Positions 3,218 to 3,395 of a stretch of 64,000 bases of DNA are shown piece after piece. Under the pieces are notes generated by a model. The model worked only from the letters and a program-made list of their open reading frames with translations, did no database searches and had not been told where the DNA came from. This DNA comes from Escherichia coli. GTDB taxonomy: Bacteria; Pseudomonadota; Gammaproteobacteria; Enterobacterales; Enterobacteriaceae. Position 1 is the stretch's first letter, and every line of letters starts with the position of its first letter. The stretch is taken from NCBI RefSeq assembly GCF_045037415.1, contig NZ_CP173438.1; one strand, 5' to 3'. Both the position numbers and the translations under genes were made by a program.

Positions 3218-3336
3218 GCCGAACTCTCCGTTACATAACGTAAAGGCATTGTATCGCAGAAAAATATTTACGGGAGATGTAAAGCAAATTAAGTGAACTA
3301 ATGCGCAACAAAAACGCAACAATAGTACAGGAGGAG

Positions 3337-3363
3337 AAAAAAAGGTGCGCCAGGAGACGCACC
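3337..3363 (-). terminator. rho-independent terminator after malM
   Basis: minus strand reads ggtgcgtctcctggcgcacc then ttttttt. Confidence 0.8.
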
Positions 3364-3395
3364 AGTTGTTGCAAAATCAGCACTGTGGAGCGTAA

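Follow-up and report, generated by a model that had tools for sequence, protein, structure and literature searches.

In a 64,000-nucleotide stretch of Escherichia coli DNA (contig NZ_CP173438.1 of RefSeq assembly GCF_045037415.1; hereafter the window), the genes malM and ubiC are separated by an intergenic interval of exactly 178 bp, at the place where E. coli K-12 carries the pseudogene yjbI. Being a structural feature and no statistical signal, the short spacer raises no question of chance; very probably it represents the state of the site before yjbI was inserted. The initial annotation had put the distance at about 180 bp and the content as the malM terminator plus the ubiC upstream region, and both descriptions stand: matches to NCBIfam equivalogs support the gene identities, an intrinsic terminator lies at 3363-3337, and the remainder is ubiC upstream sequence (Table 1). 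The same gene annotation is present in RefSeq genome SK1144, which is 100% identical to the window over 3066 bp.

The spacer is compactly organized. On the malM strand, a terminator scan identified a stem at 3363-3344 and a T-run at 3343-3337, and RNA folding gave a dG of -15.1 kcal/mol (z -3.77), a stability that none of 200 shuffles reached; this terminator is kept in all of the outgroups aligned and is identical in K-12. Beyond a 13-nucleotide (nt) slot lie two direct TTGTTGCG repeats on the ubiC strand (3300-3323, 11 bp start to start), which abut the slot and whose conservation (TGTTA/TGTTG) extends from Escherichia to Citrobacter and Salmonella. The block CTGCGATACAATG is unchanged in 12 of the 13 aligned wild-type spacers, from Escherichia to Klebsiella, with Salmonella having one substitution. 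A conserved -10-like TACAAT at 3253-3248, within the ubiC-proximal 106 bp, may be the -10 element of the ubiC promoter; we infer this position only tentatively, because a strict scan called no sigma-70 consensus promoter for ubiC. The repeat spacing may resemble that of ArcA-type direct-repeat sites; a literature search for ArcA control of ubiCA as the key to these repeats gave nothing directly relevant. An Rfam E-value scan of 2600-4700 for a hidden RNA had no match within 3218-3395, and the interval hides neither a gene, nor an Rfam RNA family match, nor a scar.

Table 1. Features of the malM–ubiC region (window positions, unless a collected locus, L, is named)
Feature	Position	Strand	Basis or remark
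ubiA	1835-2707	-	NCBIfam equivalog, full length
ubiC (chorismate lyase), first gene of ubiCA	2720-3217	-	NCBIfam NF008656 equivalog, E 5e-90, full length
Whole malM–ubiC spacer, empty (pre-insertion) allele, as very probably read	3218-3395	.	178 bp vs 2031 bp in K-12
ubiC-proximal upstream region, 106 bp, common to empty and filled alleles	3218-3323	-	96% identity with K-12 as far as the insertion point
13-nt slot AGTACAGGAGGAG (minus strand CTCCTCCTGTACT)	3324-3336	.	Pairwise and multiple alignments; holds the 1866-bp yjbI/espX4 insert in other E. coli
malM intrinsic terminator, stem-loop GGTGCGTCTCCTGGCGCACC then T7	3337-3363	-	Terminator scan and RNA fold
malM (maltose operon periplasmic protein), last gene of malK-lamB-malM	3396-4316	-	NCBIfam NF007855 equivalog, E 1.9e-159
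lamB	4549-5889	-	NCBIfam equivalog, full length
yjbI/espX4 alleles compared	L001:3106-4686, L005:2106-3686, L006:1752-3332, L007:1617-3197		

The K-12 MG1655 genome (NC_000913.3) has the same flanking genes in the same order and orientation, together with the same terminator, and differs from the window in what lies between them. The pentapeptide-repeat pseudogene of about 1.6 kb that the initial annotation had expected at this position is annotated as yjbI (b4038, 4250703-4252283, 1581 bp), between malM (b4037) and ubiC (b4039); K-12 would have contradicted that expectation had it shared the short spacer, and alignment instead gave 2031 bp with yjbI in K-12 against 178 bp in the window. Pairwise alignment places the entire difference at one point, with 1866 bp in K-12, containing a frameshifted SopA-family pseudogene, opposite the 13 bp of the slot, and with flanks that align closely on either side (96% identity over the ubiC-adjacent 106 bp and 99% from the terminator T-run into malM). 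The Prokaryotic Genome Annotation Pipeline (PGAP) labels the gene in a K-12 derivative as a frameshifted 'SopA family protein', and in K-12 it is broken by -1 and +1 indels at nt 179 and 257, such that the first stop is at codon 64.

Elsewhere, yjbI is intact and codes for a 526-aa protein, as in O157:H7, IAI39 (phylogroup F), and ST69 (phylogroup D), and the spacers of the filled alleles in K-12, O157, IAI39, and ST69 are uniformly 2030-2031 bp. The intact protein combines pentapeptide repeats with a SopA-like central domain (PF13981, E 3e-50). In O157 Sakai the orthologue is espX4 (ECs_5021), described as 'T3SS effector-like protein EspX' (T3SS, type III secretion system), and it lies at the same chromosomal position, between malM (ECs_5020) and ubiC (ECs_5022), whereas the slot in the window encodes nothing. 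The name espX4 is also used in PMC5931665; the text of a paper on a Caulobacter 'YjbI-type' pentapeptide-repeat protein draws no link to E. coli yjbI or SopA. The GC content of the insert is 34% overall and ~30-34% for the gene itself, whereas the flanking genes have 52-57%, and because of this AT-rich composition relative to the flanks we read the yjbI/espX4 block as carrying the signature of horizontally acquired foreign DNA; the spacer shows it to be a horizontally acquired one-gene island, not core DNA lost from the strain of the window. The window has no SopA-family gene in the slot and no low-GC interval of ~2.03 kb, and searches of the 64 kb with O157 EspX4 (tblastn) and the K-12 insert (blastn) returned no match at E<2. 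In several genomes (H81, H86, H104, H108, and H109) yjbI/espX4 is split further by IS1 or ISVsa5.

To place the spacer in its population, frequencies were counted over 5426 complete E. coli genomes. Of these, 1126 match a 301-bp probe spanning the junction without interruption and 4299 (~79%) have the K-12-specific 1866-bp segment, so that the two states account for 5425 of the 5426 genomes. A 61-bp probe specific to the window-type junction is found in 1120 genomes, one copy in each, at an identity of at least 99% in 1097 of them. Carriers among the matches listed include Nissle 1917, 83972, JJ1887, and O25b:H4-ST131 strains, all of them phylogroup B2, and the B2 strain UTI89 has an identical 178-bp spacer; in all of these B2 reference strains the spacer and junction are the same as in the window, with no difference at the locus. 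The window ubiCA genes are 99.4% identical to those of UTI89 and ~98% identical to those of phylogroup A, D, E, and F strains. Judged by a junction and flanking alleles common to recognized B2 strains, the window thus appears to come from a B2-type strain. A virulome survey reported espX4 and other esp genes in other lineages and not in B2 sequence types ST131, ST12, ST73, ST127, and ST95 (PMC8844930). This is an ordinary lineage polymorphism, already known at the level of gene presence or absence, and what is added here is only the polarity of the change and the exact junction. As a marker, the spacer cleanly distinguishes B2-type E. coli, with an empty ancestral site, from other phylogroups with a filled one; beyond annotation, it has little importance.

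The polarity is indicated by the outgroups. Outgroup loci were gathered by scanning genome contigs for MalM, which recovers the locus whatever sits downstream of malM, and 80 Enterobacteriaceae species genomes were returned. In 78 of these ubiC directly follows malM, with no YjbI homologue at the locus and with spacers of 172-245 bp (tblastn gaps of 176-249 minus 4); the exceptions are Enterobacter cloacae DSM 26481 (L055) and L069, a short contig in which no ubiC was found. The 78 short-spacer genomes include E. albertii and E. whittamii, in which the spacer has the same length as in the window, Escherichia sp. MOD1-EC7003 (5% divergent in ubiCA), Salmonella arizonae and diarizonae, and many species of Citrobacter, Klebsiella, Enterobacter, Kluyvera, Kosakonia, and Raoultella. 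Two loci from genomes titled 'Escherichia coli' (L008 and L010; SCPM-O-B-8794 and E69) also have a short spacer and differ from E. coli by ~7% in malM and ubiCA, lying nearer to E. whittamii or on their own; given this divergence, they probably belong to cryptic Escherichia clades and merely carry the name E. coli. In total, five non-coli Escherichia lineages were sampled (E. albertii, E. whittamii, and three cryptic ones), and all are empty.

The organization of the outgroup spacers is that of the window. In E. albertii, E. whittamii, Salmonella, Citrobacter, and Klebsiella, the terminator and T-run are followed by ~12-14 nt, TTGTT(G/A) repeats, GATACAAT, and ubiC, and the differences from the window are confined to point substitutions and short indels. 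When the spacers are aligned together, the window slot on the malM strand, CTCCTCCTGTACT, aligns with the empty sites of E. albertii (CTTCTCCTGTGCC) and MOD1-EC7003 (CTCTCTCCTGCG), with 10 of its 13 bases identical to E. albertii. The window therefore has both the ~170-250-bp length of an ancestral empty spacer and homologous bases between the T-run and the TTGTTGCG repeats. This stretch as such is absent from the filled alleles, and for that reason the 13-nt slot could not have arisen again by deletion from such an allele.

A genuine deletion of yjbI looks different, as illustrated by E. coli HH45. Its spacer is 212 bp (L004:1884-2095), retaining the insert edge ATGCTTCCTTCCTGG after the T-run, followed by a 29-nt GC-rich filler, CCCACCGCCCCCGCAGAGTCGCAGATTTC; its flanks are K-12-like, with malM differing from K-12 by 0.3%. 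The source of the filler was not found in the K-12 insert, the HH45 locus, or the window, and a megablast search of the HH45 genome gave no second copy. The HH45 scar is present in only one of the 5426 complete genomes. The window has neither the ATGCTTCCTTCCTGG edge nor a filler, and shares its flanking single-nucleotide polymorphisms (SNPs) with UTI89. Because the outgroups are short-spaced, the junction bases are homologous to empty sites, and no remnant of an insert edge is present, we regard it as highly probable that the window carries the ancestral, never-filled allele and that the yjbI/espX4 insertion arose within E. coli outside B2. The initial annotation had left the choice between a deletion and a pre-insertion state; the outgroup, junction, and edge evidence favors the latter and not the former.

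Secondary deletion, in which the E. coli ancestor had yjbI and the B2 ancestor removed it cleanly, is very unlikely. IAI39, whose phylogroup F is often placed near B2, and the phylogroup D strain ST69 have the intact gene, and on some topologies a loss in B2 therefore needs as few events as a gain; HH45 also demonstrates that deletions do happen at this locus. The points against it are that the 13 nt of the window match outgroup empty sites and no filled allele, that the bases which the HH45 deletion keeps at the insert edge are lacking, and that every one of the five non-coli Escherichia lineages is empty. It is also very unlikely that B2 was once filled and regained the empty allele by homologous recombination with an empty-site donor, for example E. 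albertii or one of the cryptic clades. Such recombination is plausible here because the malM-lamB region is a mosaic: the window malM differs from that of UTI89 by 3.5% and from that of K-12 by 4.3%, whereas ubiCA differs from UTI89 by only 0.6%, a pattern that points to a recombination mosaic or to a fast-evolving segment beside the phage receptor gene lamB. However, the ubiCA genes and spacer of the window are ~2% from other E. coli and 5-9% from every sampled outgroup, so no outgroup import is visible, and the spacer SNPs that set the window and UTI89 apart (AAATATTT and GTTCAC) occur in no outgroup aligned. An assembly collapse or sequencing error behind the short spacer is extremely unlikely, given that the identical 61-bp junction occurs in a single copy in each of 1120 E. 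coli genomes that were finished independently and that the 3066-bp interval is 100% identical in three complete genomes.

Several observations weigh against an insertion into a never-filled site, or at least against its simplest form. A target-site duplication was sought by local alignment of the two 40-nt insert edges, and the score of 7 is close to the shuffle mean of ~6, with 126-163 of 500 shuffles scoring as high, which is not significant. A candidate duplication picked out by eye, TTCCTGGGAT / TTCATGCGAT (8 of 10 positions identical, flanking the insert), was rejected on the same grounds, as a score of 7 is reached in 26-33% of shuffles. A search for repeats at the insert ends, inverted or direct, gave only short chance-level matches, and the malM–ubiC site has no insertion sequence (IS), integrase, or tRNA. 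The presence of the insert in IAI39 bears on the number of events: if B2 is not the earliest-branching group, a single vertical insertion would be insufficient, and the insert or the empty allele would have spread by homologous recombination; if F is closer to B2 than to the other groups, one or the other must also have moved in this way. The K-12 yjbI allele differs by ~6.5% from those of phylogroups D, E, and F, against 1-2.6% in the flanks, which is unexplained by simple vertical descent unless the gene is under relaxed constraint. Nonsynonymous codon differences in yjbI outnumber synonymous ones by ~2 to 1 (K-12 compared with O157, IAI39, and ST69), and for this reason relaxed constraint is suggested. 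Also, the set of loci recovered included no type genome of E. fergusonii or E. marmotae.

With these qualifications, we regard the following history of the never-filled allele as very probable. The ancestral spacer would have consisted of the malM rho-independent terminator, a slack segment of ~13 nt, and the ubiCA upstream control region, and an AT-rich foreign block of ~1.87 kb would have been inserted into the slack segment in E. coli lineages outside B2. This block carries a single gene, yjbI/espX4, with its own flanks (169 bp on the 5′ side and 116 bp on the 3′ side), coding for a SopA-family, pentapeptide-repeat, T3SS-effector-like protein. The window allele would descend from a site that was never filled, with nothing lost and nothing new encoded. 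We observed directly the coordinates, where the indel begins and ends, how common each allele is among E. coli genomes, which state the outgroups have, and the composition of the inserted DNA; we infer a single insertion after the B2 split. The insertion point is ~106 bp upstream of the ubiC ATG, just outside the two TTGTTGCG repeats, so that empty and filled alleles have the core ubiC control region in common. Transcription of malK-lamB-malM would stop at 3363-3337, ~125 bp before the start codon of ubiC, and ubiCA would be expressed from the proximal 106 bp, the same as in K-12.

The Enterobacter cloacae DSM 26481 locus (L055:6936-9910) has an insert of ~2.8 kb between the malM T-run and the TTGTTGCG repeats, the same slot that holds yjbI/espX4 in E. 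coli. The insert codes for a Tli4-family immunity protein (PF18443 and PF18426; E ~1e-44 and ~1e-40) and, on the opposite strand, a frameshifted alpha/beta-hydrolase, a Tle-like (Tle4-like) lipase gene, together a type VI secretion system pair; its GC content is 51%, against 58% in malM. We found no mobile-element gene, target-site duplication, or terminal repeats in this insert. Two unrelated effector cassettes, acquired independently at one slot, could mean that the ~12-nt segment between the T-run and the TTGTTGCG repeats is a recurrent landing site for secretion-system effector cassettes in the Enterobacteriaceae, independent of any recognizable mobile element. We consider this unlikely; were it true, it would mean an unrecognized insertion route, and not chance combined with selection for the sole dispensable bases of the spacer. 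A simpler reading is that these ~12 nt may be the sole spacer bases that tolerate interruption, and the different effector cassette in Enterobacter is an only mildly interesting by-product.

Two further observations concern the neighboring maltose genes. The malM–lamB spacer has two elements of the repetitive extragenic palindromic (REP)/bacterial interspersed mosaic element (BIME) type at 4381-4535, the only region matched in the Rfam scan (REP/naRNA4), with one element at the gathering score of RF02564 (naRNA4; 77.7 bits). The length of this spacer differs among strains, and the 3066-bp interval of the window corresponds to 3156 bp in UTI89, aligned in two pieces. In the O157 Sakai RefSeq record (L089:4028-6477), malF and malG are annotated as pseudogenes, beside intact malE and malK-lamB-malM.
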